Source: a virus. From it: DNA of 11,422 nt. Both the position numbers and the translations under genes were made by a program. The notes beneath the pieces are model-generated. The model was not told the origin of the DNA. It searched no databases and worked only from the letters and a program-made list of their open reading frames with translations. The stretch lies in the UHGV virus genome UHGV-2155131. One strand, 5' to 3'. Positions 1 to 11,422 of this stretch are shown in pieces (the first letter of the stretch is position 1; each line of letters opens with the position of its first letter).

Positions 1-146
1 TATCGGCAGAACGCCCTGCCGCTGACAAGAGCTTATTTGCCTGACCAATCTACTCCACATGATAGATAACTATCATTTATAACATCTCATTGATTAGTCT
101 TTATTTTTCATTGTGTTACAAATAACAGCTCTGTCAAAAACAGCGA

Positions 147-172
147 AATTAACTACACCATTAACTACACCG
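147..172. repeat. Left copy of 26-bp direct repeat (aattaactacaccattaactacaccg); putative attL core
   Basis: Identical 26-mer recurs at 11126..11151. It contains an internal tandem 12-mer (attaactacacc x2). Confidence 0.7.
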
Positions 173-312
173 TTTCACGAACAATATCGAACAACCACGA
201 ACAAAGATCAACACGCTTTAACCGTTATCATTTTCCGGCTATCCGTTATGAAGCTGGTGGATGTTCCCCGATATGGGGATCCCCACCTACCGGAATTTTT
301 GCCAGGTTAAAT

Positions 313-551
313 GTTAACCTCTGCCCTGTTAACATTTTTACCAAAAAGGTAGTTAACATTTTTTGCACGCAACCAGATGAATCATAAAGAAAAAATCAAC
401 AACAACGCTTCATCAGGCAGTTAACATGTTAACTACTACGAAACGGTAATTTTTTCTCTGCGTGAGAGGGGGCGCGGTGTCCAGCTTATTCGTTGTTCGT
501 GGCTAACCACTCCCCCCCCATGCCGGATTTTTTTTCCGGTTAACTGTTAAT
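313..551. promoter_or_regulatory. Cluster of GTTAAC-containing palindromes in the left arm (candidate recombinase arm-type / IHF / regulator sites)
   Basis: GTTAAC at 313, 328, 352, 420, 428, 539. GTTAACATTTTT occurs twice (328..339, 352..363). Perfect 14-bp palindrome gttaacatgttaac at 420..433. Inverted repeat ccgga-T7-tccgg at 523..539. Confidence 0.3.
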
Positions 552-592
552 CAGGCTGGTGGGTTTTACATACCCTTGATCACCGTAATGAT

Positions 593-814
593 GATCCAGA
601 TCTGCACCTTTCCACCAATGGTGGAAAAGCCCACAGCAGGCCGCCCAGCCTCCACCAATGGGGTAAAAGCATCAACCGTAACGAAAGTCGTTATGGTTGC
701 CACCGATACCCCAAATTTGGGTATCACGAGTAAGCCCCAAAATCTGGGTGTTACTCTTACCACCCAAACTACGGGTAGTTTCCGTAGTTTCATGGTCGAG
801 TTGCAGATCTGCAA
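593..814. repeat. Repeat-rich non-coding segment bounded by two GCAGATCTGC palindromes, with four CCNCCAAWNTGGG-type repeats
   Basis: tgcagatctgca at ~596..607 and ~801..812. ccaccaatggtgg (613..), ccaccaatgggg (651..), ccccaaatttggg (708..), ccccaaaatctggg (735..). The three overlapping ORFs here lack Shine-Dalgarno sequences. Confidence 0.3.
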
Positions 815-1110
815 CTCCCCCATTAACCACAGGCGAATTTCCGCCTTCGGTCATTCCTTAATCATCTGCGTAATCATAATGATTATTCAGCAAGCGCAAT
901 TTTGCGCTTTGCTTAAAGTTCAGCGAGTTACCGCGCCGACTTCCTCAAATTGAGGTTTCCGAAAATATCAGCGGGTTAGCGATTAAGCTGATCATTAATT
1001 AAACTGCGAAAATTTCGTAGTTTGTGACTGTCTTTCAGGCAGCTTGTTAACAGTCCTCAGAAGCGAGGGATGTAGCCACCCATTTTTGGTCCGTCGGGAA
1101 TATCAACCAG

Positions 1111-1392
1111 TTACCGCCGCAACCGCTCCGGCTTCTTCCAGTGGTACGTTATTTTCTCCTTCTCCCGATACATCTCCACGCGGCGACGGTAGGCCAGCAA
1201 CTCAAGAACTCTGGTTCGTATGTTGCGCATATCCACGCCATTAAGTTCTATACCATCACGGCGCATCACCTCCGCAACAACACGCGCATAATTTTCAGCG
1301 GTCACGCTGTCCGGCTGCGTGGCCTGTTCGTCAACCTGCTGGCTGATTCCGGCAACGCGGCGGATTAATCCCAGTATTTCGGCTTCTGTCAT
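1111..1392 (-). CDS. Hypothetical protein (93 aa) in the position a small terminase occupies relative to cos
   Basis: ATG start at 1392 preceded by a GGGGG motif. The translation is charged and helix-rich, unlike the antisense ORFs. It lies downstream of the cosB-like region on the same strand as the right cos copy. Confidence 0.5.
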   Translation of the reverse strand: MTEAEILGLIRRVAGISQQVDEQATQPDSVTAENYARVVAEVMRRDGIELNGVDMRNIRTRVLELLAYRRRVEMYREKEKITYHWKKPERLRR

Positions 1393-1425
1393 TGTGCCCC
1401 CATCGTTCTGATAGTCTGGTGTCGT

Positions 1426-1490
1426 CGGGTCCTTCCTGGAATTATGGCCCGTTACGGGGCGGCGACCTCGCGGTTTTTCGCTATTTATGA
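1426..1490 (+). other. Lambda-type cos site, left copy (cosQ-like + cosN GGGCGGCGACCT at 1457..1468), plus orientation
   Basis: gttacg|gggcggcgacct|cgcgg...ttttcgctatttatga matches the lambda cohesive-end region recalled from the lambda genome left end. Forms a 65-bp inverted repeat (62/65 identical) with 1959..2023. Confidence 0.6.
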
Positions 1491-1828
1491 GATTTTTTGA
1501 GGGGGTGGTTGTTGTTTAATTGTTTGGTATATCTAATTGATAAGTAAGGTAAAAATAAAATTAATACAACAACCTTACGATGTATTTTGATGTCATTAAT
1601 GTGAAAAAATTCAATGATATCAAATGGTTTTGTAAAAACACATGGTTGTTGTATCGCGTATTTGATGGCGTAACAGAAAGTGATTTTTAACTTTACCGCT
1701 CTGTAACTACGGATTATTCCATGCTGGCACGGAGAACGGCTACGGCATGACGCCACCCAGCCTATACAGAACAGTAAAGCCGATAAATTGTTAATCACGC
1801 GCAGCAATGCGTGTGATTTTTGCACACT

Positions 1829-1958
1829 TCCGGTTAACGGGTACGATGTCCGGTTTTAGTGTCTGTTTTTTGCGCATGTCCGGTTCATAGAAAGCATGTT
1901 TTTATATTTTTCATATGGTTAACTTGCAGAGAAACCGGACATGGATCCCGGAAAATTT
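1829..1958 (-). promoter_or_regulatory. cosB-like region with TGTCCGGTT repeats (candidate small-terminase R sites) and an AT-rich IHF-like stretch
   Basis: tgtccggtt at 1850..1858 and 1879..1887, inverted copy aaccggaca at 1934..1942, related cttccggttaac at 1829..1840. Lies directly next to the right cosN, as cosB does in lambda. Confidence 0.4.
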
Positions 1959-2023
1959 TCATAAATAGTGAAAACGCGCGAGGTCGCCGCCCCGTAACGG
2001 GCCATAATTCCAGGAAGGACCCG
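1959..2023 (-). other. Lambda-type cos site, right copy (cosN at 1981..1992 on minus strand), the copy most similar to lambda cos
   Basis: Reverse complement reads acgggtccttcc...gttacg|gggcggcgacct|cgcgcgttttcactatttatgaaaattttccgg, matching lambda cosQ/cosN and the start of cosB through TATTTATGAAAATTTTCCGG. Confidence 0.7.
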
Positions 2024-2024
2024 T

Positions 2025-2046
2025 AAAAAAGCCGGATTTCTCCGGC
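2025..2046 (-). terminator. Rho-independent terminator ending the capsid operon
   Basis: On the minus strand: hairpin gccgga-gaaa-tccggc followed by a T6 run, 7 nt after the stop of the 2053..2460 gene. Confidence 0.6.
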
Positions 2047-2052
2047 CTTGTC

Positions 2053-2460
2053 TCAGATGGTTTTCAGTATGCGATCGATGTCGCCGTCATCGCCCTGGTT
2101 TNNNNNNNNNNNNNNNNNNNNNNNNNNNNNNNNNNNNNNNNNNNNNNNNNNNNNNNNNNNNNNNNNNNNNNNNNNNNNNNNNNNNNNNNNNNNNNNNNGC
2201 TCTATGGTCATGTTCAGGATTTCACGAGCATTATCGACGCTAATACATGGCACGTTTGCCATTGCACGTAACAGCGGCTGATAGTCTTTATGCTCATGAA
2301 GCGCCATAATCGCATCAGCGCGCGGCTTGTCCTGCTCTTCCAGTTTGTTTAGTTGATATACGGCCTCATAGGTTGATAAACCTCTGTCAGCCATTGCCCG
2401 CGCTTCGGCTTTAAATTTACTCGCCAGCGGTAGCGTCATGATGCTTTCATTCGTTGCCAT
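2053..2460 (-). CDS. Hypothetical protein, last gene of capsid operon; reading frame spans an assembly gap
   Basis: Start at 2460 with a GGGGG motif and TAA-coupled spacing after the decoration gene. N-terminal 87 aa are real sequence. The C-terminal 15 aa and the terminator placement suggest the gene ends at 2053, but frame continuity across the N run is unverifiable. Confidence 0.45.
   Translation of the reverse strand: MATNESIMTLPLASKFKAEARAMADRGLSTYEAVYQLNKLEEQDKPRADAIMALHEHKDYQPLLRAMANVPCISVDNAREILNMTIEXXXXXXXXXXXXXXXXXXXXXXXXXXXXXXXXXNQGDDGDIDRILKTI
2102..2198. other. Assembly gap (97 N)
   Basis: Literal run of n in the sequence. Confidence 0.95.
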
Positions 2461-2472
2461 CGTTCCCCCTGC

Positions 2473-2808
2473 TTATCGGGCCAGCGGCTGAACGGATACG
2501 CCGGAACCCGCAAAGGCGGCGCATTTTTTCGCATCGGTGTCGACGCTCTCAGGCCAGTTAACGGCGGCAATATTGAATATCCCCGTCTTGTAACACTGTG
2601 CTGATTTCTGCTTTGACGTGTCCACAGGGTACGAGGTCAGATAAACAGCCTTGCCAGATTCCTTACCATCCCACGGCTTAAACTCGCCATTGTCCGCCAG
2701 CATCAGCGGGGTAAATTCCTGAATAACGCCAGCATCAGCGGCAAAATGTACCAGCGTCGTGGCGACCTGCTGACTGCCTGCAAATAACTCAATGTATGGA
2801 GTGTCCAT
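2473..2808 (-). CDS. Head decoration protein, lambda gpD-like
   Basis: 111 aa. Shares TPLML, WDG, YKxGxF, WPE and KKxAAFAG motifs in the same order as lambda gpD (recalled from memory). GGGGG Shine-Dalgarno motif 6 nt before ATG. Confidence 0.8.
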   Translation of the reverse strand: MDTPYIELFAGSQQVATTLVHFAADAGVIQEFTPLMLADNGEFKPWDGKESGKAVYLTSYPVDTSKQKSAQCYKTGIFNIAAVNWPESVDTDAKKCAAFAGSGVSVQPLAR

Positions 2809-2819
2809 AGAATCCCCCG

Positions 2820-3875
2820 TTAACCAATTTTGACGGTAACAAATTTGCGAATATCTGCCGGAACCGGCTGCGGTGCGCTGTGCGTCTGCACGTACTCAAT
2901 CGCCGGATCGCCGTCCTCAATCCAGTTTTTCGGGTAAAACATGTTTTGCGTTGCGCCCGTTCTTACTGCGTCCTGATCCATAATCGCACCATAGGCCACC
3001 AGCCCTTTATTGTTGGTGTTGCCCAGGACAAGCAAATCAGGCTCAAGGAAATATTTTTCTGTGCCGTCGCTGTCAGTGTATTTGCCGGAATAGACGATAA
3101 GGGCAATATCGCCCAGATAGCCTTTAAAGCTCACCACTTCGCCCAGGTTTTTACAGGCCAGCTCTGCGGCGGACTCTGAACCACGGGAAAGATCGTACAG
3201 CTCACGGAATTTTTTAAAGCTGCGTAACGTTCGCCATACCTCAGCGCCCATAATCATGACGTTTGCGGGGCAACCAGCCTGATCGGCGTATAGTTCGATA
3301 TCATAGATTGGATCGTGGGTTTCTTTGTCCTGCTCTGACCATTTTTTCCCGTCGGCCTGCTCTATGATGTTTTTTTCCGGTATCTTCCAGTCGATTTCAT
3401 AGCGCTCTATGCCTTCGCCTTCAATGATGTTTTTTCCGGTCGTTACCGCATTTACCGCCAGCCATTCCACGCGCGCTTTTATGGCGTTTATCTGGCGGCG
3501 CATATTGCCAGTAATCAGGCGCATACGGCGATAGGTAGGGTCGTTAAGCTGTGCCGGATCTTCTCCAGCCATGCGCATGATGGTTTTCGTTGGATCGATT
3601 TCGTGCTTTGGCTTCATGTAGCCAGGTTTAATCGTGCTGGTTTCGTACCCTTTATCGCGCTGAACCTGGCTACCCACCATAGGCGAACAAAACGCCGACA
3701 TGGTGACTTCTTCAATGTCCAGGGTATCCAGCATGATGTTTTGCGTGCTGAATGTCGCCACGTTCGGGAAAAACAGCGTGGTAAACAGCGGACTGAATTT
3801 AAATTCCGCAATATCCCCGCGATTCAGGTACGCAAAAAGCTGGTTAGTGTTAAGTGCCATTGCTTTTACTGTCAT
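2820..3875 (-). CDS. Major capsid protein, lambda gpE family
   Basis: 351 aa. Collinear with lambda gpE across the whole length (FKFxPLF, TPGYxKPKHE, DPxYRRxRxI, WSxxDKxTxDP, YSGxY, VLGNT, YPKNW, GDPA, SAP). Start overlaps the upstream stop (TAATG). Confidence 0.9.
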   Translation of the reverse strand: MTVKAMALNTNQLFAYLNRGDIAEFKFSPLFTTLFFPNVATFSTQNIMLDTLDIEEVTMSAFCSPMVGSQVQRDKGYETSTIKPGYMKPKHEIDPTKTIMRMAGEDPAQLNDPTYRRMRLITGNMRRQINAIKARVEWLAVNAVTTGKNIIEGEGIERYEIDWKIPEKNIIEQADGKKWSEQDKETHDPIYDIELYADQAGCPANVMIMGAEVWRTLRSFKKFRELYDLSRGSESAAELACKNLGEVVSFKGYLGDIALIVYSGKYTDSDGTEKYFLEPDLLVLGNTNNKGLVAYGAIMDQDAVRTGATQNMFYPKNWIEDGDPAIEYVQTHSAPQPVPADIRKFVTVKIG

Positions 3876-4081
3876 TATTCACCCCCGTGAACCTGATTCA
3901 TACCCAGCGCCGCGCGTAAATAGGCGCGTACCTGCCAGCCTGTTGACGGCTCAACCATCGCCAGCGGATCAAGTCCTGCCGCAATGCCTGCTTTTACGTT
4001 CTGCTGGTGGCGTTCCTTGAGCGCCTTCACGATGTCGGGGCTTATGTACACCGAAACACCGCCTTTTTTCTCTTCAGCCAT
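3875..4081 (-). CDS. Small hypothetical protein (68 aa) translationally coupled to the capsid gene; possible beta-strand/helix DNA-binding-like pattern
   Basis: AGAGGAA Shine-Dalgarno motif 9 nt upstream of ATG at 4081. TAATG overlap with the capsid gene start. Function not recognised. Confidence 0.5.
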   Translation of the reverse strand: MAEEKKGGVSVYISPDIVKALKERHQQNVKAGIAAGLDPLAMVEPSTGWQVRAYLRAALGMNQVHGGE

Positions 4082-4248
4082 AGTAAGAAATTCCTCTTTG
4101 ACTTAAAAAATCATAACTGGATGTTCATCCAGATCTGATTATAATCATGATTGCATTTTATGCAATGATGTTGAGTTGTGTTGCAAAATATGAAATGATG
4201 ATCCCGATCATGTGTGTCAGTGCACCAAAAAAAACCTCATATGCAAAA
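4082..4248 (-). promoter_or_regulatory. Putative late/capsid operon promoter region with palindromes
   Basis: AT-rich stretch between the bidirectional terminator and the first capsid-operon gene. Contains ctggatg-tt-catccag (4119..4134) and tgattataatca (4137..4148, includes a TATAAT-like hexamer). Confidence 0.35.
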
Positions 4249-4287
4249 GCCCGATAAGATGCCTCCTGTACTTATCGGGCTTTTTTT
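4249..4287 (+). terminator. Rho-independent terminator-like hairpin (gcccgataag ... cttatcgggc + T7)
   Basis: 10-bp perfect stem, 12-nt loop, T7 tail on the plus strand. May act bidirectionally together with the neighbouring hairpin. Confidence 0.5.
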
Positions 4288-4293
4288 GGGTAC

Positions 4294-4316
4294 AAAAAAG
4301 CCGGATTACTCCGGCT
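4294..4316 (-). terminator. Rho-independent terminator for the regulator / replication-side operon
   Basis: On the minus strand: hairpin gccgga-gtaat-ccggc then T6, 6 nt after the stop at 4322. Nearly identical to the terminator at 2025..2046. Confidence 0.55.
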
Positions 4317-4321
4317 GTTGA

Positions 4322-4594
4322 TTAGCTGTCTGGGTAATTACGCCATATTTCATCGCTTACACCATCTATACCCATTTCAGCATAAGTGCGATCTACTGCC
4401 TTTCTCAGGTCTCCGAAGTTATCCGGCGGCTCCGGTGGCTTCTGTGCCTTCCTGGAACATTCCAGCCGTCGCATCGTAACCTGATGCCGTTCCTTGTCTG
4501 TCTCCACCAGTTGCATGACTTCACCCCATCGTGCCGCCGCCCTCCGGTAAAAGCCTTTTGCCTCGAGTTCCTCCGCTATGCGGTCATGTACCAT
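4322..4594 (-). CDS. PerC-family transcriptional regulator-like protein
   Basis: Motif AEELEAKGFYRRAAARWGEVM resembles the conserved PerC/Pch core as I remember it. Preferred start is ATG 4594 with GAGGGGG upstream, directly after the SSB-tail stop. The ORF track extends to a GTG at 4714. Confidence 0.55.
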   Translation of the reverse strand: MVHDRIAEELEAKGFYRRAAARWGEVMQLVETDKERHQVTMRRLECSRKAQKPPEPPDNFGDLRKAVDRTYAEMGIDGVSDEIWRNYPDS

Positions 4595-4604
4595 CCTCAC
4601 CCCC

Positions 4605-4897
4605 TCAGAACGGAATATCATCACCGTAAGGGTCATCGCCTCCCGCTGGTGGCTGATTACCCTGTGTGCCTGTGGTCTTGCGTCTGTTCCCGCCAGGACG
4701 TGCCGCACGGGCACTGATTACGCTGTCTGCAATAACCTGATAACCCTGCCGCGTTTCCCCGTTCTGTCCGGTCCACTGGCTGATCTGCATGGCAAAGATA
4801 CCGCCATACGCGCCAGCGTCATCGGTGTACCCTTGCTGGTCTGTTTTACCTGCGGGTCGTCCACCAGCCGCCCGTAAGCGGCTATCTGTGCTGTCAT
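4605..4897 (-). pseudogene. SSB-like gene remnant in two frames: N-terminal OB-fold fragment (4718..4897) and C-terminal fragment ending in the DDIPF acidic tip (4605..4790)
   Basis: Frame A (MTAQIAAYGRLVDDPQVKQTSKGTPMTLARMAV...) resembles the SSB N-terminus. Frame B (...QISQWTGQNGETRQGYQVIAD...GGDDPYGDDIPF) resembles the SSB beta4-5 region and C-terminal tail. The frames overlap out of phase, about 40 aa of OB fold are missing, and no slippery heptamer was seen. Confidence 0.5.
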
Positions 4898-5172
4898 GAT
4901 TCCACCTCTCCGGTTTTAACGTTGATGGTTGTTACCTGTTCCGCTTCTGCAATCTCCCGCTCTGTCAGCGTGGCAAAGTTTGCCGCCGCCGTGGTCATGA
5001 ATGCGCTTATTAGTTCGGGATGTGCTTTCGAGTATCCTTCTCCCGCTGTGATGTCTATCACCTTTATAGCCACCTTTAAGGCGTGCTCTGTCATCTCCAG
5101 CGCTTTATATCTTGGTGCTGTTCTGTCTTTGCGTTTTTTGAGTGATTTGTTAAATCTTCCTGATGTGTGCAT
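4894..5172 (-). CDS. Hypothetical protein (92 aa)
   Basis: ORF starting next to the iterons. Its stop overlaps the SSB-like frame A start (ATGA). Function not recognised. Confidence 0.45.
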   Translation of the reverse strand: MHTSGRFNKSLKKRKDRTAPRYKALEMTEHALKVAIKVIDITAGEGYSKAHPELISAFMTTAAANFATLTEREIAEAEQVTTINVKTGEVES

Positions 5173-5220
5173 TTTTATTTTTACCCTCGTGTTTAAAAAG
5201 TTTTAGGTTGTGGTGCACCT

Positions 5221-5445
5221 CCTCTACCTCTCTACCTAATCATCTTTCATGTCAGTAATGGCGCGGCTTTCAGATGGGTAGAGGGCTTTCGTGGCCCTCT
5301 ACCCATCCTCTACCCGCCCCTCACAAACGATCTTAATCATGGTAGAAGAGGTAGAGAGGTTTTATTAGCCTTCTACCTAGCCCTCTACCCACTTATCATG
5401 TTGAATAATATGCGTTTATTTCATTCAGGTAGATTGGGTAGAGGG
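5221..5445. repeat. Iteron array; candidate replication origin downstream of the primase gene
   Basis: About 10 copies of CTCTACC / GGTAGAG in both orientations (e.g. 5222, 5230, 5276..5285, 5295..5304, 5307..5315, 5350, 5381..5390, 5436..5445), including the palindrome gggtagagggc-N7-gccctctaccc (5276..5304). Flanked by AT-rich stretches. Confidence 0.6.
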
Positions 5446-5458
5446 CTTTTACAAAAAA

Positions 5459-7207
5459 TTATAAAAACGCGTCACAATCATCAGTTGTAATTGCGTTGGT
5501 CTGCGTTACTCCCTTAACTCTCCGCGTAATATATTCATGTCCGTAAACTTTTGCCGCTGGCTTCATGGCCTTGCTGAACTCAGCCACGTTTAGCGGTTTG
5601 CTCCTGCCTGCGTATGCCATAAACGCCAGATAGACGCGGTAAAGGCTGTTTCTGGTCGTGTACTTCACGGAATCGCCACCGCCACCCATCATCAGGCCGC
5701 GAGCTTCCTCCAGAAAATTCAGGAACTGGCAAAACTCAATAACCGGATCCGTCTGTTGCTTTATCGCCAGTGCTTCATCACCGTCGCGCTGTTCCAGTAA
5801 TAAAGCCCGTGCCTTTTCAGGGTCGGCAAAATTAGCCAGCAAGCGACGGATAATTACGGGGATTTCAGCCGCGACCTTCTCCGGCAAATCCTTGTCTTTT
5901 TCGTCCTCCCTTACAATGTTGTCGAACCGGAAAATCACCCGACGGCGTGACACACCTCCGGCCCGCTCGGTGAATATCATCGGGTTATTGTTGGTAGCCA
6001 GCACCACCGCCCTGATTACCGCCGTAAAACGCTTCTCATATTTCGGGTTTATTTCCACTGGGTCGCCGCCCGTGATTTTCTTGATGCCCGTTCCTTCGCC
6101 TGTATATTTCGGCTGGTCAGCCAGGACGATAAGACGACTCCCGACAACCTGCGCACGTCCACCAGCATCATCAAGTGAGGTCATTTCAGCGCTTACCGTG
6201 TTCTGTTTCCCTGCCAGAAGGCTGGCTATGTGCGTGAATGTACTTTTACCGCTACCGCCCTCTCCGGTGGCCTCAATAAACATCTGCCAGTCGTACCGGT
6301 TCGCCATAATCATGTACAGCGCGGCACATATACGCATCATCTTGCGCGGGTCTTTTCCGGCTGCGTGCTCAAGCCATTTATGAAAGTTTGGCGCGTTGTC
6401 GCAGATATTCTCCCCTGGTGCTGGTGGCGTGTACTCAATGCCGTTGTGCGTGGTGATCCAGTTCTCCGGCGTGTGCGGGGAAAATTCCCCCGTTTTCAGG
6501 TCAAGCGCACCATTGGCGAACGGCAGCAAATCGCCGGACGGCTCCCCCATTGGTTCGGCAATAACTTTTAACGCTTCAACGGCGTTATTGATCACGCGTT
6601 TGCTAAAAGTGGCCCTGTGCTCTGAATAGATCGCCACCATTTCGCGGCTAAGTTCCATTGTGCTGACCGGACACCATACCCCGCCGCGCCATACGTGAAC
6701 GATTTCACTTTCCGGATGCACACAAACGCCATCAAATCGACCAGCAAGCATCTGTGCGCGCTCACTGTCTGCCATTTGTGCCAGTTGCGTATTTTTCTGC
6801 TCCGGCATGGTAAGCCCTGCGGCAATATTTTCACGCTCAGCATTCAGATAGCGCCGCCAGTTTTCACACTTCTGGACGTGCATTCCTTCGGGGTAAAAAT
6901 TTGCGTCCTGAATATCTGCCGCCGCCAGCTTCTGACCAATCTTTTTGGTCTCCACCAAATCCAGTTCTCCGGCCTGGTACAGCCTTACGCGTTTTTTTCC
7001 ATCCGGAACAATTTTCAGTGCATCAAGTTCGGCAAGCTGATTTGGCCCAAGCCACACAGGCGGCACATTATCGCCGGATGCGGGGCCATCCTGCTCCTGC
7101 CATTGTTTCGCGTGCGACCAGGCATCACTACCCGCGAAAATAATTACCTCTGTGTCTTTGTGTTTTATTCCGCGTGGCTGTTTTTTTACGTTCGGTGCCA
7201 GTTTCAT
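5459..7207 (-). CDS. P4-alpha-like primase / SF3 helicase replication protein
   Basis: 582 aa. Walker A motif GEGGSGKST mid-protein with a D5_N-like upstream region, typical of phage/plasmid primase P4-family C-terminal domains. GGGG motif before ATG; ATGA overlap with the upstream gene. Confidence 0.85.
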   Translation of the reverse strand: MKLAPNVKKQPRGIKHKDTEVIIFAGSDAWSHAKQWQEQDGPASGDNVPPVWLGPNQLAELDALKIVPDGKKRVRLYQAGELDLVETKKIGQKLAAADIQDANFYPEGMHVQKCENWRRYLNAERENIAAGLTMPEQKNTQLAQMADSERAQMLAGRFDGVCVHPESEIVHVWRGGVWCPVSTMELSREMVAIYSEHRATFSKRVINNAVEALKVIAEPMGEPSGDLLPFANGALDLKTGEFSPHTPENWITTHNGIEYTPPAPGENICDNAPNFHKWLEHAAGKDPRKMMRICAALYMIMANRYDWQMFIEATGEGGSGKSTFTHIASLLAGKQNTVSAEMTSLDDAGGRAQVVGSRLIVLADQPKYTGEGTGIKKITGGDPVEINPKYEKRFTAVIRAVVLATNNNPMIFTERAGGVSRRRVIFRFDNIVREDEKDKDLPEKVAAEIPVIIRRLLANFADPEKARALLLEQRDGDEALAIKQQTDPVIEFCQFLNFLEEARGLMMGGGGDSVKYTTRNSLYRVYLAFMAYAGRSKPLNVAEFSKAMKPAAKVYGHEYITRRVKGVTQTNAITTDDCDAFL

Positions 7208-7503
7208 TTTTTACCCCTGAATACGTTAAGCATCTTTTTTATTTCCTGAATATTGGCGCGTGCTTTCTCCCTGCTGGTGGGCACGTTACGCGGTACGGCC
7301 TGCACCAGAGAAAAATCACGATCGAACTGATAAACAGGCATCACGCAATCATATTCGTAGCCTTCACGACGGTAGGTTACGCGCCGTTCCTCCACGCCCT
7401 TAATCATTACCGTGCCGCCGTACTGGTCGCGGTAAATATCACCGCGCATGAATTTAGTGCGAGTTTTGCCACTGGCAGTTAAGCCAGAATATTTAAGTTT
7501 CAT
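7204..7503 (-). CDS. Hypothetical protein (99 aa), translationally coupled to primase
   Basis: ATG at 7503 with GGAG upstream. Stop overlaps the primase start. Confidence 0.5.
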   Translation of the reverse strand: MKLKYSGLTASGKTRTKFMRGDIYRDQYGGTVMIKGVEERRVTYRREGYEYDCVMPVYQFDRDFSLVQAVPRNVPTSREKARANIQEIKKMLNVFRGKK

Positions 7504-7508
7504 TATTT

Positions 7509-7739
7509 TTATTCTCCGGTGTGGGGCGCTTTATTATTCTCGTGAATTGCCATAGCCTTATTGAGTTCATCAATAACAGGTGTCAATAATGTCTGAACAG
7601 CGGCAAACATTAATGATGAATGATCTTCGCCACCTTCCGGCACTTCAATTAATTTAATTAATAACGCATTCATTTCGCGTGCTTTAATTAATGCGTTTTC
7701 AGAGTGGATTAATACTTCAAAAGGGATTTTATGCATCAC
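7509..7739 (-). CDS. Small hypothetical protein (about 75 aa) in a low-GC segment
   Basis: GGGAG Shine-Dalgarno motif before a GTG (7739) / ATG (7736) start. Helical, acidic composition. Confidence 0.5.
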   Translation of the reverse strand: MMHKIPFEVLIHSENALIKAREMNALLIKLIEVPEGGEDHSSLMFAAVQTLLTPVIDELNKAMAIHENNKAPHTGE

Positions 7740-7959
7740 AAATTTTCTCCCTTATTCTTTTAATGTCCTCATTAAGGATGTCTGTAACTTTTATCAGCGA
7801 GTTTTTGGCAATTATTTTTATTGTTTTAAGTTTTCTTTTGTCGTGCTCCGACTGTGATTTTCTTTCCATAATCTCCACCATGTGGGTAACATCAACGAGC
7901 GCACGTATCAGTATTTGCATTGCTTCTTCTGCTGCGTCCGGACGGGTGTTATTGCACAT
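7729..7959 (-). CDS. Small hypothetical protein (76 aa) in a low-GC segment
   Basis: Strong AGGAGG Shine-Dalgarno motif 6 nt before ATG 7959. 11-nt overlap with the downstream gene. Confidence 0.55.
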   Translation of the reverse strand: MCNNTRPDAAEEAMQILIRALVDVTHMVEIMERKSQSEHDKRKLKTIKIIAKNSLIKVTDILNEDIKRIREKICDA

Positions 7960-8155
7960 GGCACACCTCCTGACGAATACGGGCAGCGAATACCATCACG
8001 CAGCCAGCCGGGGATTGCTGGCGTGCTTCCTGTTCGCTGGTGGCCTCGATGGTAATCACGCGCGGTTGTGCCGTGCTCAGGGCGATAAAACGCCAGATGT
8101 ATTTATTCAGGTCGTGCGAGTCCCGCCCTTGCGGGTGTGTGGTATGATTTCTCAT
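7949..8155 (-). CDS. Small hypothetical protein (68 aa), probable first gene of the leftward replication operon
   Basis: Internal ATG at 8155 with GAGG 6 nt upstream. Protein-like translation (MRNHTTHPQGRDSHDLNKYIWRFIALS...). Same frame as the long 439-codon ORF. Confidence 0.4.
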   Translation of the reverse strand: MRNHTTHPQGRDSHDLNKYIWRFIALSTAQPRVITIEATSEQEARQQSPAGCVMVFAARIRQEVCHVQ

Positions 8156-9268
8156 AGCTGCCTCGATACTTTCGCTATCGTTGGTGGTTAGAAGCCCGGT
8201 TAGTGTTAGCGCACTGCCGGGTTTCGTCGTTTCTGCACCTTGCGCCAACAAGGTGTTGAACACCAATTTAAACCCAGGTGTTAAACACGTCAAGTGTTGA
8301 ACACTTATTTTTTTTCCTGCATACTGCATTTGTTTTTTATGAGGGGTACACCACATGGCGACAAAAGCAGTAAACGCAAAATCACAAACCGTTGCGGCAA
8401 GGGTTCCGCATGAAGTTATGAACAATGTTGAGGCGGTAAAAATGCCTGGCGAAAGTACGGGGCAATTTGTTACTGCGGCATTAAAACGAGAAGTTGAATA
8501 TCGCCAGCGGCGCAAGGCCAGTGAATCCGAGAAATCATTAATCACGTCATAACATGAAGAACGATGGCGATAATCATAGGAGTAAAAGATGTTAAAATTA
8601 AAAAAACATGTACCAATGATGGTTGCTTTAATTATCACAATCTTTCTCTTAATATCATGCTTTGAGAAAAATAGTCTTTGCTCAAACGATAAGGGCGATT
8701 TATTACGGCGTGCTTGCGATGTAGAGTTGAAAAAAAGTTGAGCACTACCTAACCGAGACAATGCCGTAGTTCCTGTAATCACAGGATCGCTCAGGCTTTG
8801 CCCACCAGCCGCAAATATGGCATTGTTGGCAATGCTCATGCGTTGGGGATAACGTGTAGCTTGTGTCGAGGGGCCACCGTAGCGGGTGGCCTTTGTTTTG
8901 CCCGTTATTCGGCAATTGTGGCGCTTCTCCACATGGTTGATATAATCCCACTGCTCAGATTCATTTTTTGCGCAGTAGGTTAATTGTTCACAAAGGCGCT
9001 CCGGCAACGGGGCGCTTTTTGTTTTTATTAGTTTGTAGAAACCTGACTCAGAGATAATGCTCATATTCTGATTGCCGTCAGGGGTGTAAGTTAAATTTAC
9101 TCCCTTTTTATCATCAAACATCTGCAACGCTCTGGCGTTAACAATATTGGTTTCACTCCCGCCAGTAAGGCCGGAAATAACCGGAATAATTTCGGCAAAA
9201 TTTTGCAGATTCTGTTTTTCAGGACGAACGAAGCCCCGCCCTTGTTCGGGAGAATATCCAGTATTCAT
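7949..9268 (-). CDS. Bro-N domain (antirepressor-like) protein; only the N-terminal ~175 aa (about 8745..9268) is recognisable and the 3' extent is uncertain
   Basis: DGNQNMSIISESGFYKLI...LPERL matches the Bro-N core motif (NMNIINESGLYSLI). The frame then runs stop-free for about 800 nt through low-complexity translation, antisense to the RHH gene and the operators. Confidence 0.45.
   Translation of the reverse strand: MNTGYSPEQGRGFVRPEKQNLQNFAEIIPVISGLTGGSETNIVNARALQMFDDKKGVNLTYTPDGNQNMSIISESGFYKLIKTKSAPLPERLCEQLTYCAKNESEQWDYINHVEKRHNCRITGKTKATRYGGPSTQATRYPQRMSIANNAIFAAGGQSLSDPVITGTTALSRLGSAQLFFNSTSQARRNKSPLSFEQRLFFSKHDIKRKIVIIKATIIGTCFFNFNIFYSYDYRHRSSCYDVINDFSDSLALRRWRYSTSRFNAAVTNCPVLSPGIFTASTLFITSCGTLAATVCDFAFTAFVAMWCTPHKKQMQYAGKKISVQHLTCLTPGFKLVFNTLLAQGAETTKPGSALTLTGLLTTNDSESIEAAMRNHTTHPQGRDSHDLNKYIWRFIALSTAQPRVITIEATSEQEARQQSPAGCVMVFAARIRQEVCHVQ
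8253..8304. promoter_or_regulatory. Three operator-like inverted repeats GTGTTNAACAC within divergent promoters
   Basis: Copies at 8253..8263, 8278..8288 and 8294..8304. Rightward promoter candidate: -35 TTGAAC (8297..8302) and -10 CATACT (8320..8325). Leftward candidate: -35 TTGACG (complement of 8288..8293) and -10 TAAATT (complement of 8265..8270). Confidence 0.5.
8355..8552 (+). CDS. Ribbon-helix-helix-like small DNA-binding protein (putative island repressor/regulator)
   Basis: GAGGGG Shine-Dalgarno motif 8 nt before ATG. N-terminal beta-strand with alternating hydrophobics (TVAARVPHEV) followed by two helices, as in Arc/CopG-type proteins. Diverges from the operator region. Confidence 0.5.
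   Translation: MATKAVNAKSQTVAARVPHEVMNNVEAVKMPGESTGQFVTAALKREVEYRQRRKASESEKSLITS
8589..8666 (+). CDS. Candidate 25-aa cationic/hydrophobic peptide (MLKLKKHVPMMVALIITNLSLNIML) downstream of the RHH gene
   Basis: Canonical AGGAG 6 nt upstream of ATG. Below the ORF-track size cutoff. Composition resembles small membrane peptides. Translated by hand. Confidence 0.25.
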
Positions 9269-9320
9269 GGTTAGATCTCTGTATTAGTGGATGGGTGGCG
9301 GCTGTGTGCCGCCAGCCTGA

Positions 9321-9509
9321 TTAGTGAACTGCCTCGCAGCTGTCCTTCCATGCCAGAACTTCGGATAAAGACCAGCCAACGGAACGACCGCCCAGCTTAC
9401 GCCGTGATGGGAATTGTCCGGCTTTTTCCAGGCGGTACCGACATGAGCGGCTCAGGCCTGTAAGTTGCTGACATTCTTTTTCACGTATAAAGCGATCTGT
9501 GCTTAACAC
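9321..9509 (-). CDS. alpA: AlpA-family phage transcriptional regulator / excisionase-like protein
   Basis: 62 aa with the LxxxxRSVGWxxSEVxxW signature of AlpA-type winged-helix proteins. Located between int and the rest of the island, as in PICIs and P4-like elements. Confidence 0.8.
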   Translation of the reverse strand: MLSTDRFIREKECQQLTGLSRSCRYRLEKAGQFPSRRKLGGRSVGWSLSEVLAWKDSCEAVH

Positions 9510-9790
9510 AATTCCCCCTTTGTTGTTTCTTAAAGAGTCATTGGGTGGATTATTGGGTTGGGTTGTGTCGGATTGTGTCAGGGTGTTTGTGGAATGGCAA
9601 ACACTGGCGGCGGTCGTTTTACAGAAGCAGGGGGAATGAGAATAAAAACTCTTTTAATTCATTATGATGCAAAGGCATAAAATTTTACTTTTACGCCTTT
9701 TTTACATATTTTTAAGAGTGATTCGCCAGTGTATAAAAAAACAGTACACCTATAAAAATCAAATGGTTATTACGATGGCTGATTTTTAAC

Positions 9791-9850
9791 CCGTTGTTCC
9801 ATTTTGTTCCTTGTTGTTCGTCGTTGTGTCTCGTTGTTTCACGTTGTCCG
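9791..9850. repeat. Six tandem 10-bp repeats (NCGTTGTNYC) just 3' of int, in the alpA upstream region
   Basis: ccgttgttcc / attttgttcc / ttgttgttcg / tcgttgtgtc / tcgttgtttc / acgttgtccg in helical phase. Confidence 0.5.
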
Positions 9851-9874
9851 CATCCTGAAAAATCGCAAAAAAAA

Positions 9875-11125
9875 TTATATTTCTCTGGCTATTGGCAATG
9901 TGGTTACGTTTTCATGTGTTCCCGCCAGTATCCCTAACCGCTCCGTCCACATATCCAGCGCGTCACGTTTCGCATCCAGATAACGGGAATGGTTATAGAC
10001 TCGTTGCATCCCTGGCATCTGATGACCTGTAAGCTGCTCCACGACGTGAGGATCCACGCCTAAATCGTTCAGCATCGTTGTAAAGGTGCGCCGGATGTCA
10101 TGCAGTGACCAGTGAGGGTGTTTTAGCCTCCTGTGCGCTAATCTACCGTACTGCGACACGCTTGTTTCCTGTTTCACTTCCCCCAGCAATAAGCCCGTGT
10201 GCCTGTTCTGCTCCACCAGCTGCGTGACGAACGGCAGTATTGCTTCCGGTATGGGCCGGAATATTGCCACCTTCGTTTTGCTGTGTTCTTTCGGCACGGT
10301 CCAGAGCATTTCGGTAAAATCCCACTCGCTGATCTCCGATAACCTCAGTTCTACCGTCCGGCATCCGAAAACAATCAGGAGGCGGATTAGTGCGACGTAG
10401 TAAGGGGAAAATATTTTTTTGTCCAGTGCCTGCAATAATTCGCCAAGTTCTTTGGTGCTTAAGACACGCTCGCTTATATCCGGTTTTTTCCCAACGTCCG
10501 CCACACTCATATCATCAAGAACGTTGCTGATTGCATAGCGCCGCCTCCGGCAGAACTTAAGCGCCTGTTTGCACGTCTGTAGCAAGAATCCGGCAGTAAC
10601 AGGCGTTCGCTTTGCCACCTGGTCAAAACAGGCCAGCCAGTGCCGTAGCTCGCATTTATCCAGCGGCATAGCACCAATGTGCTGTATTACGTGATTATTA
10701 AGGCGCTTTTTCAGGGCGGCATAATCCACGCGGTTTTCCTTTGCGTACGACTCAAGCCAGTAGGTGAGCGCATCGCCAACCGTTACCGGCTTTAACGCTT
10801 CCTGTACGGTGTAATTAAGCTCATGACGTGGATTTTTCCCCTCTGCCAGCCATGCGCGACACTGGGCGGCTTTTTCCCTGGCTGATTTCAGGCTCAGATC
10901 AGGATAATTTCCCAGCTTAATGCGTTCCGGTGGTGCCCCCCTTCCCGTTCCGGCCCTGTAAGTGAAATACCAGGTTAAAAGGCCACTGGTTGAATGCCTG
11001 ACGCTCAGGTTTCCACCGTCATTAAGAAAGGCTGTTTTTTGGGCGGGTGTGCCGTTGATTTTCCTCAGCTGTGTATCGCTCAGTTTGTTAAGTGCTCTGC
11101 TCATAATTTTGATTCCGGTCATCAC
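9875..11125 (-). CDS. int: P4-family tyrosine integrase
   Basis: About 410 aa. N-terminal arm-binding-like region (LSDTQLRK...GGNLSVRHSTSG...WYFTYR) and C-terminal catalytic region with an HxxRRT-like motif (LHDIRRTF). The 11125 start is GTG; ATG alternatives at 11122 and 11104. Confidence 0.9.
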   Translation of the reverse strand: MMTGIKIMSRALNKLSDTQLRKINGTPAQKTAFLNDGGNLSVRHSTSGLLTWYFTYRAGTGRGAPPERIKLGNYPDLSLKSAREKAAQCRAWLAEGKNPRHELNYTVQEALKPVTVGDALTYWLESYAKENRVDYAALKKRLNNHVIQHIGAMPLDKCELRHWLACFDQVAKRTPVTAGFLLQTCKQALKFCRRRRYAISNVLDDMSVADVGKKPDISERVLSTKELGELLQALDKKIFSPYYVALIRLLIVFGCRTVELRLSEISEWDFTEMLWTVPKEHSKTKVAIFRPIPEAILPFVTQLVEQNRHTGLLLGEVKQETSVSQYGRLAHRRLKHPHWSLHDIRRTFTTMLNDLGVDPHVVEQLTGHQMPGMQRVYNHSRYLDAKRDALDMWTERLGILAGTHENVTTLPIAREI

Positions 11126-11151
11126 AATTAACTACACCATTAACTACACCG
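11126..11151. repeat. Right copy of 26-bp direct repeat; putative attR core, immediately upstream of the integrase start
   Basis: Exact match to 147..172. P4-family integrases classically have their att core just upstream of int. Confidence 0.7.
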
Positions 11152-11352
11152 ATCGTTGCACAAAGGGCTACAACGTGAAACAAGCTGGAACAAGGAAAAT
11201 CACAAATCTGTTTATAATCAAAAACATAATGAACAATCTGAAACATTATGAAACGGCAAAAAACACTAATTGATAAAATATGCCCATACTTCACGCATTA
11301 CGTTAAGCATCCGTTATAATCGGTTGCAGATACCAGCCTGTGGATGCTTAAC

Positions 11353-11422
11353 ATGGAATACCAACTCACTCTTAACTGGCCCGATTTTCTTGAACGTCAC
11401 TGGCAGAAACGCCCGGTGGTGT
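11353..11422 (+). CDS. roxA: 5' end of a chromosomal roxA (ycfD)-like gene, partial
   Basis: Translation MEYQLTLNWPDFLERHWQKRPVV matches my memory of the E. coli YcfD/RoxA N-terminus. Lies outside the right direct repeat. Confidence 0.55.
   Translation, partial: MEYQLTLNWPDFLERHWQKRPVV

Follow-up and report, generated by a model that had tools for sequence, protein, structure and literature searches.

A mosaic island of the EcCICFT073 family in which an exact 26-mer direct repeat lies inside the attachment cores and probably represents integrase arm-type sites

EcCICFT073 is the closest described relative of the locus analyzed here, and both the island type and its attachment sites are already published (Fillol-Salom et al., 2018; PMC6092414). 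The published span of EcCICFT073 (AE014075.1 1377749-1389210) runs core to core at the ycfD(roxA)-phoQ attC, a sequence resembling GGGCGGCGACCTC / GGGTCCTTCC is listed as CFT073 cos.1 in the supplement, and helper-phage induction and high-frequency transfer have been demonstrated for EcCICFT073 itself (PMC6092414). PICIs are set apart from the satellite phage P4 by their att sites and gene content and because they lack a plasmid state (PMC6092414). Regarding integration, the int promoters of KplE1 and P4 overlap Int arm-type and RDF sites, and binding of the KplE1 integrase IntS represses int transcription (PMC2951348).

The sequence studied here, UHGV virus genome UHGV-2155131, is a stretch of 11,422 nt referred to as the window, and its gene content and alignments identify it as a mosaic member of the EcCICFT073 family of Gram-negative PICIs of Escherichia coli (Table 1). 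The gene set comprises int, alpA, primase, perC, and gpE/gpD-like capsid genes (Pfam) along with cos sites; int, alpA, and primase are all encoded on the minus strand, with the integrase at one end followed by alpA and the primase, the core-to-core length of 11.2 kb (66-11285) falls within the PICI range of about 11-15 kb, and the two 72-nt repeats carry the cos-like GGGCGGCGACCTC / GGGTCCTTCC. Pfam and PHROGs searches of the window revealed no phage tail or lysis genes and only the gpE/gpD-like capsid genes, as in EcCICFT073, and PADLOC defence models yielded no matches among the accessory ORFs. The window resembles EcCICFT073 in its Int (99% identical), attR core, P′ arm, and roxA flank and in the order int, alpA, DUF4222, primase, perC, gpE/gpD-like capsid genes, cos sites, and 93-aa gene, and approximately 78% of it aligns at ~93.6% identity; identity reaches 99% both for 8795-11422 against CFT073 and for 2199-11422 against roxA-site islands. 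By contrast, the window has a left end (1-2101) and a left flank of the cspD-clpS type, its primase allele is ~86% identical, a 439-aa gene is additionally present, the SSB gene is missing, and the 454-nt inter-cos segment is inverted relative to CFT073. The PICIs at the cspD-clpS site (EcCIIHE3034 type, e.g., the NCTC9112 island, L006) agree with the window at 99.6% identity in the left core ATAACTATCAT, in the P arm, and over 2.1 kb at the left end. They differ in their Int, which shows only 76% identity, and in their right end, which has a matching core and abuts yljB/cspD. Similarities to P4 include a P4/CP4-like integrase, an AlpA/Vis-like small regulator, a D5-type primase, and an Icd-like protein; sid/psu/delta-type genes were not detected in the window with Pfam.

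Table 1. Coordinates of features in the 11,422-nt window.
Feature	Position	Strand	Remark
Chromosomal flank, clpS upstream (clpS-yljB/cspD intergenic)	1-65		Match to L004 4001-4080
attL core, cspD-clpS type, ATAACTATCAT	66-76	+	True left boundary; reverse complement of published ATGATAGTTAT
P-arm spacer, island DNA	77-146	+	Missing from empty sites
Int-distal tandem 12-mer copy	147-172	+	Proposed P arm, arm-type Int sites; 71-74 nt inside core
Three GAACAA repeats, 10-nt period	179-205	+	ACAA at 181, 191, 201; proposed AlpA/excision-factor sites
Two cos-like 72-nt inverted repeats	1426-1497 and 1952-2023		Flank 454-nt segment
Run of 97 N	2102-2198		103 nearly invariant nt here in 7/7 homologs compared
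Lambda gpD-like decoration protein	2473-2808	-	Pfam PF02924
gpE-like major capsid protein	2820-3875	-	Pfam PF03864
274-nt stretch identical in both island alleles	3859-4132		Switch from L017-type to L064-type block
Primase/replicase (D5_N, DUF5906)	5459-7207	-	Pfam; identical protein in islands at three att sites
AlpA-family regulator/excision factor	9321-9509	-	PF05930, E=3e-18
Six TTGT repeats, 10-nt period	9794-9848	-	Inverted orientation of ACAA arrays; between int and alpA
Tyrosine integrase, N-terminal Arm-DNA-bind_3	9875-11104	-	99% identical to EcCICFT073 Int
Int-proximal tandem 12-mer copy	11126-11151	+	Proposed P′ arm, arm-type Int sites
Five ACAA repeats, 10-nt period	11160-11206	+	At 11160, 11170, 11180, 11190, 11202
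attR core, ycfD(roxA)-phoQ type, AAATATGCCC	11276-11285	+	True right boundary; published core GGACATATTT (reverse complement)
Chromosomal flank, roxA upstream region and roxA N-terminus	11286-11422	+	ATG at 11353

A repeat search recovered the 26-mer AATTAACTACACCATTAACTACACCG as two exact and identical copies at the positions given by an earlier note on this DNA, well beyond chance (expectation for such a pair in 11.4 kb, ~1.4e-8). As that note had also described, the 26-mer is built of a tandem 12-mer (ATTAACTACACC x2), and its right copy abuts the integrase start. Measured against the longest int ORF (9875-11125), this copy begins 1-3 nt past it; measured against the start codon given to RefSeq homologs (window 11104), it lies 22 nt upstream. 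All four occurrences of the exact 9-mer RACTACACC in the window fall inside the two 26-mer copies. In ordinary islands the two copies differ by one base, and the perfect 26/26 identity here is a consequence of the window having a distal arm of the clpS type and a proximal arm of the roxA type. The earlier note further envisaged an integrase-bearing island of ~11 kb at an intergenic, non-tRNA target with roxA on the right, which the present analysis supports: the target next to roxA is the published ycfD(roxA)-phoQ attC site of EcCICFT073, and no tRNA or tmRNA 3′ end is present at a junction, as ARAGORN detected zero tRNA/tmRNA genes and Rfam zero families in the window. The roxA-like N-terminus is likewise present to the right of the repeat, although it starts at 11353, at a distance of 202 nt from the repeat, farther off than had been described.

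The island boundaries were located by comparison with two island-free sites read directly, K-12 J53 (L002) and RM9154-C1 (L004), each of which carries one of the published cores in a single copy. The sequence of the K-12 empty site is ...GATGAATAAATATGCCCATACTTC and its match to the window starts only at 11276, and in the clpS empty site the match stops at about 76-80; the insertion junctions lie 71 nt further out than the 26-mer on the left and 125 nt further out on the right. In K-12, the roxA-phoQ core overlaps the phoQ stop codon. The ATAACTATCAT core occurs once in the clpS empty site, and two copies flank the clpS-site islands. Relative to the clpS start codon, position 1 of the window lies 27 nt upstream, and the left flank, which also matches the occupied clpS-site loci L003/L006, is clpS upstream DNA and not the phoQ side of the roxA locus.

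In ~28 related islands, which occupy three att sites, each arm has one tandem RACTACACC pair; the pair is present in exactly two copies per island, 71-74 nt and 125-128 nt inside matching cores, and its boxes have a 12-nt period and the same orientation in the int-distal and int-proximal arms. The box is common to roxA-, clpS-, and tqsA-type integrases; the roxA-type and clpS-type Ints are 76% identical and yet have the same box, and the link between Int and box is therefore coarse. More distant integrase lineages carry other motifs. Islands with the L053-type Int (N-terminus ~60% identical) have a diverged tandem ACTGACCACACA in both arms, and those with the L058/L060-type Int (~27% identical, tRNA-Pro site) have CGTATAACTAAA x2 in each arm, at a distance of 131 nt from the tRNA end, although both types have a primase ~96%, a capsid ~95%, and a 93-aa protein 100% identical to those of the window. 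Hence the motif varies with the integrase lineage and not with the primase, capsid, or AlpA modules, in a sample of only three or four Int lineages. An iteron or packaging role for the boxes was rejected because they are absent from islands whose primase and capsid modules are ~95% identical to those of the window. A scan of species-representative genomes for the tandem motif returned 28 matches, of which only those in Shigella flexneri, a normal roxA-site island, and Phytobacter were relevant, the others being chance matches or unrelated tandem arrays; a literature search found no papers containing the motif sequence. As a separate observation, the related Int lineage L060 does use tRNA-Pro.

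The arrangement of the two arms is comparable to that of heterobivalent integrase systems (lambda attP; KplE1 IntS/TorI attL; P4 Int/Vis). The Int of the window has an arm-binding N-terminal domain (PF13356, E=5e-18, residues 15-102) and matches PDB 3JTZ, the N-domain structure of a CP4-like integrase; each arm contains short direct repeats set at a constant distance from the core (tens to ~130 nt), and attB has none; one arm includes the int start and promoter region; and phased sites suited to an excision factor adjoin. The repeat sequence also co-varies with Int: three Int lineages, a small sample, have three different tandem 12-mers but share primase, capsid, and 93-aa genes. The sequences are unrelated to those of the systems named above, and the IHF consensus WATCAANNNNTTR was found in neither arm. 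On this basis, the tandem boxes would be arm-type sites for the N-terminal arm-binding domain of a heterobivalent Int, with IHF-type bending between arm and core assumed from other systems, and the 10-nt-phased ACAA arrays would be sites of the AlpA-family excision factor or activator. The proximal copy lies 22 nt upstream of the int start, and Int bound there would therefore probably also repress int transcription, as does KplE1 IntS; a promoter scan found no sigma-70-like promoter on the int strand upstream of int. Excision would leave a box-free attB, predicted to read ...TAAATATG(C/T)CCATAC.... Taken as a whole, a mosaic EcCICFT073-family PICI in which the 26-mer provides internal attP-arm Int sites and AlpA acts on the ACAA arrays appears likely, and the assignment of each protein to its repeat, along with int autoregulation, is probable.

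Two other readings of the repeat were considered. That the 26-mer is an att core duplicated at integration, giving an island of 147-11151, was suggested by an exact direct repeat that flanks an integrase-bearing island and abuts int, and was expected to leave a single repeat copy in the empty site. This is extremely improbable, and as an attachment site the 26-mer is refuted by the empty-site comparison: a motif scan found zero copies in K-12 J53 and RM9154-C1, and their roxA-phoQ and cspD-clpS junctions are uninterrupted in 4822 and 5058 of 5426 genomes, respectively, with roughly 600 roxA sites and 370 clpS sites occupied. No genome covered ≥80% of the predicted empty site composed of flank, one 26-mer, and flank. 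Furthermore, DNA of the island, missing from empty sites, extends for 70 nt and 125 nt outside the repeats, the same motif occurs at three chromosomal sites with differing cores, and the published cores and coordinates fall outside the repeats; the span AE014075.1 1377749-1389210 corresponds to L001 2753-14214, and the 24-mers are internal to it (L001 2837-2860 and 14056-14079). The island boundaries accordingly map to 66-76 and 11276-11285, and not to the repeat as the earlier note had proposed. Alternatively, the AlpA-family factor or another regulator of the int promoter may occupy the tandem boxes and Int the ACAA arrays. AlpA of CP4-57 activates its integrase gene, and the distance of 22 nt between the proximal copy and the int start suits an operator. 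Nevertheless, this exchange of roles appears unlikely, since the L053 boxes change with the Int lineage while AlpA homologs and ACAA arrays stay, and since the AlpA-less L058 type loses the ACAA arrays and keeps its own tandem 12-mer. Arrays with a 10-nt period are, moreover, typical of oligomerising winged-helix excision factors (PMC11963761). The assignment of Int to the boxes and of AlpA to the arrays is consequently preferred.

The mismatched ends of the window raise a distinct question. All ~28 comparison islands have matched core pairs, whereas the window combines a clpS-type left core with a roxA-type right core, both published, and its two flanks derive from loci that are 267 kb apart in the same orientation in K-12 J53. 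The sequence blocks of the window switch within stretches common to the island types: from A to B at about 2000, in real sequence, and from B to C in 3859-4132. An island-type switch coinciding with the N run was thus rejected. A scaffold gap of estimated size is the most likely origin of the N run, because 103 nearly invariant nt occupy its place in seven of seven homologs compared. Its left edge (2101) lies exactly 77 nt into an allele-shared stretch starting at 2025, although its right edge, 2199, misfits the same k (2210 expected) with the available proxy alleles, and a de Bruijn-graph origin of the gap is only suggestive. The most likely explanation of the mismatched cores and flanks is a chimeric scaffold formed via sequence common to two resident islands, which is favoured over a real recombinant junction. 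A real hybrid, produced by homologous or Int-mediated recombination between a cspD-clpS PICI and a roxA-phoQ PICI, is possible, albeit the weaker candidate; it might reside where a 267-kb tandem duplication is joined or an excised circle is closed, a tentative proposal under which the mismatched cores would not permit excision. The common orientation and the 267-kb spacing give the topology of such a duplication or circle junction, and the second switch lies in continuous, N-free sequence within 274 nt identical in both alleles, as for a crossover. However, the clpS...roxA join was present in none of 5426 complete genomes (in a whole-window megablast, the single best place begins at 271 and reaches 81% coverage), searches for exact copies of four proteins, namely the primase, the capsid protein, and the 93-aa and 439-aa proteins, gave only islands with matched flanks, and every resolved island with blocks C/D has the other B allele and phoQ. 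In an independent assembly, L069, which matches the window at 100% identity over 7.3 kb, the contig stops at 4134, and the N gap with its exact 77-nt left offset also speaks against a real junction. The junction pattern across 3859-4132 had one match in IMG/VR, of a different allele at 95% identity, which is uninformative. The more specific scenario, in which a real exchange between PICIs generated the 267-kb duplication or circle and locked the hybrid, with both arms still carrying boxes for the same Int, is somewhat doubtful.

The boundaries, the motif-free empty sites, the fixed arm geometry, and the co-variation with Int are shown by the comparison. A practical lesson is that in islands with heterobivalent tyrosine integrases the longest and most perfect flanking direct repeat can represent arm-type sites and not the crossover core, and boundaries called from such repeats are then off by about 70-130 nt. 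This trap concerns at least three integrase lineages of the PICI family (RACTACACC x2, ACTGACCACACA x2, and CGTATAACTAAA x2). The comparison additionally provides a map of the ~350-nt attP of EcCICFT073-type PICIs, in the order int start, boxes, ACAA x5, core, 71-nt spacer, boxes, and ACAA x3, which is of some use since these islands are under development as DNA-delivery and diagnostic chassis. ACAA arrays are retained alongside AlpA homologs and missing in the AlpA-less type (L058). Because roxA-, clpS-, and tqsA-type integrases have a common box, co-resident islands may interact through Int. If the hybrid is an artefact, it is a warning regarding scaffolds that pass through multi-copy islands; if real, it would represent a PICI-mediated large rearrangement, and PICIs would constitute portable homology, possibly with common Int arm sites, for large chromosomal rearrangements.

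The island type in the window is already known, because the type itself has been published, as have both of its att sites with the corresponding cores, and every block of the window is 99.5–100% identical to sequenced islands. Approximately 78% of the window aligns, at approximately 93.6% identity, with the phoQ-roxA island of E. coli CFT073, and the two integrases (Int) are 99% identical. The CFT073 island, EcCICFT073, is the prototype of the Gram-negative phage-inducible chromosomal islands (PICIs) and is listed at AE014075.1 1377749-1389210 with the att core GGACATATTT and the location ycfD-phoQ (Fillol-Salom et al., 2018, Table S1; PMC6092414). Pfam domains in the window (tyrosine integrase with Arm-DNA-bind_3, AlpA, DUF4222, D5-type primase, PerC, and lambda gpE-like and gpD-like capsid proteins) match the gene set expected of EcCICFT073. 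The 454-nt segment between the cos-like repeats is inverted relative to CFT073, and its gene lies on opposite strands in two related islands (L017 and L015); this segment seems to flip between strains. Furthermore, a 439-aa ORF, for which neither Pfam nor PADLOC returned a match, shows weak BRO/anti-repressor-like PHROGs matches at its N-terminus, and its C-terminus matches a small “transcriptional repressor”/Icd-like protein (PHROGs) that other islands encode separately, as a 66-aa gene. The ORF seems to be an accessory fusion gene located in a variable hotspot.

Both identical copies of the 26-mer, which is built as a tandem 12-mer, were confirmed by a sequence check; such a pair is expected by chance at roughly 1e-8 in window-sized DNA. 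All four occurrences of the exact 9-mer RACTACACC in the window are inside these copies. The right copy directly abuts the outer end of the longest int ORF, 22 nt upstream of the start codon given in the annotation of RefSeq homologs, and roxA starts at 11353, 202 nt further right. No tRNA, tmRNA, or Rfam family was detected in the window and ycfD-phoQ is the published site, in agreement with the non-tRNA target beside roxA proposed in the earlier note. By contrast, the 26-mer is not the island boundary for which it had been taken, as the junctions map elsewhere, to cores outside both copies. The island-free junction of K-12 J53 has the sequence ...GATGAATAAATATGCCCATACTTCACGC, with phoQ and roxA spaced by 75 nt, and similarity to the window starts only at 11276; therefore, 11152-11275 is island DNA. 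At the other end, positions 1-76 are the clpS upstream region, not phoQ, and beyond ~76-80 the window no longer resembles the island-free clpS-yljB-cspD locus. This locus is occupied by a related island in other strains, and its published core is ATGATAGTTAT (PMC6092414). A single 26-mer copy had been predicted in the empty site; none was found in the two empty-site sequences read directly, even with four mismatches allowed. The published coordinates of EcCICFT073 correspond to 2753-14214 of the retrieved CFT073 locus (L001), exactly core to core, and its 24-mers (2837-2860 and 14056-14079) are internal to this range. Among 5426 complete E. coli genomes, the phoQ-roxA junction is uninterrupted in 4822 (~11% interrupted) and the clpS-yljB junction in 5058 (~7% interrupted).

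Features of the window and arm repeats of related islands (L053 and L058/L060, islands with other integrase lineages, in their own coordinates)
Feature	Position	Sequence or remark
Left core	66-76	ATAACTATCAT, window orientation
26-mer, left copy	147-172	AATTAACTACACCATTAACTACACCG
Left ACAA array	181/191/201	
Inverted 72-nt repeats	1426-1497, 1952-2023	93% complementary; cos-like sequence as listed for CFT073 (PMC6092414)
439-aa ORF	7949-9268	minus strand, between alpA and replication genes
Third array, inverted	9794-9848	six TTGT, exact 10-nt period; between int stop and alpA
26-mer, right copy	11126-11151	AATTAACTACACCATTAACTACACCG
Right ACAA array	11160/11170/11180/11190/11202	
Right core	11276-11285	AAATATGCCC, window orientation
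Block A	1 to ~2000	99.5-99.6% identical to clpS-site islands
Block B	~2000 to 4132	100% identical to allele present at both sites (L017, L018, L019)
Block C/D	4135-11422	100% identical to roxA-site islands (L064, L069)
Boxes, roxA-phoQ site		int-distal ATTGAC...ATTAAC...; int-proximal ATTAAC...ATTAAC...
Boxes, clpS-cspD site		int-distal ATTAAC...ATTAAC...; int-proximal ATTAAC...ATTGAC...
Boxes, tqsA site		int-distal AATGAC...AGTGAC...; int-proximal AGTGAC...AGTGAC...
L053 arm repeats	1-28, 11140-11167	exact tandem 12-13-mers, ACTGACCACACA x2
L058/L060 arm repeats	1-340, ~11229-11255	exact tandem 12-13-mers, CGTATAACTAAA x2 with inverted pair

The geometry of the repeat is conserved in approximately 28 related islands, all complete, from three att sites (roxA-phoQ, clpS-cspD, and tqsA). 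Each carries exactly two tandem boxes in the same orientation, one per arm, with the int-distal copy 71-74 nt and the int-proximal copy 125-128 nt inside the core, and both end cores are always the published core of the respective site. The invariant part is RACTACACC x2 with a 12-nt period; the perfect 26/26 match in the window arises only because a clpS-type distal arm is paired with a roxA-type proximal arm. In a scan of species-representative genomes, Shigella flexneri (in a roxA-site island) and Phytobacter massiliensis (once) were the only carriers of the tandem box. The box travels with the integrase and not with the remainder of the island. L058 and L060 share with the window the primase (~96% identity), the capsid protein (~95%), and a 93-aa protein (100%), whereas their integrase is only ~27% identical and targets tRNA-Pro, L060 being inserted at the tRNA-Pro(GGG) 3′ end. 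Both lack the RACTACACC box and have a repeat of their own adjoining int, with a second occurrence in the distal arm at a distance of 131 nt from the tRNA end. L053, whose integrase N-terminus is ~60% identical to that of the window, has a diverged box in both arms. Over residues 201-409, the roxA-type (window 9875-11104) and tqsA-type (L013/L016) integrases share 96.6% identity, and most of their differences fall within the first ~60 residues. Up to the core, the P′ arms of the two types hardly differ, although the cores themselves do (AAATATGYCC versus TGCTGTTAT).

The two flanks of the window belong to different sites. In K-12 J53, roxA-phoQ (~2,242,510) and clpS-yljB (~2,509,500) are 267 kb apart and oriented as in the window; therefore, a real clpS-island-roxA join would mark the junction of either a tandem duplication or an excised circle, not a deletion or inversion. 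This join was found in none of 5426 complete genomes, and every island retrieved by four exact-protein look-ups had matched flanks. In every resolved relative, block C/D is joined to another B allele and to phoQ, and the B-to-C switch falls within a 274-nt stretch (3859-4132) identical in both alleles. In an independent assembly that matches the window at 100% identity over 7.3 kb, a contig ends at 4134, which is the signature of a genome with two islands sharing this stretch. Furthermore, a run of 97 N (2102-2198) takes the place of 103 nt that are nearly invariant across all seven homologs compared; it is inside a 135/137-aa ORF that adjoins the decoration gene and keeps its reading frame through the gap. 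On the left, the run begins exactly 77 nt into a stretch that the island alleles share, consistent with a scaffold gap of estimated size at the edge of a repeat, the right edge being off for the same k.

From the absent join, the block switches in shared stretches, the contig end, and the gap, the window is probably a repeat-mediated chimeric scaffold. A genuine recombinant island joining the clpS and roxA flanks is less likely, given the matched flanks of all retrieved islands and the consistent linkage of C/D to phoQ, and a real PICI-by-PICI exchange leading to a 267-kb duplication or circle is unlikely. Under either reading, excision of the island as written by site-specific recombination would not be expected, the cores being non-matching. 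Independent-assembly contigs with the roxA-site island (L068, L069, and L070) often end inside it, at window 2706, 4134, and 7260, suggesting the presence of a second, partly identical island in many host genomes.

Each box pair is followed directly on its right by ACAA repeats with an exact 10-nt period, and the inverted TTGT array may bind a regulator upstream of alpA. ACAA arrays are retained in every island type with an AlpA homolog, L053 among them; the L058 type, which lacks AlpA, has CCGGTG repeats in their place. Given the arm-binding domain of the window integrase, taken together with the geometry and co-variation, the boxes are best read as putative arm-type Int sites (P and P′) and the arrays as candidate sites for an AlpA-family excision factor or activator. 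The KplE1 intS region provides a documented precedent for such a layout, as its int promoter overlaps Int arm-type and excision factor (RDF) sites and int is negatively autoregulated; the P4 layout is similar, according to the same authors (PMC2951348). By analogy, int of the window island may be autoregulated. Neither a sigma-70 promoter upstream of int nor an IHF consensus in the arms is recognisable. A literature search for the motif sequence returned no paper containing it. The present analysis adds a map of the attP arms, built by comparison and showing tandem boxes of Int type and phased arrays of AlpA type, and cautions that arm repeats of this sort can be mistaken for att sites.
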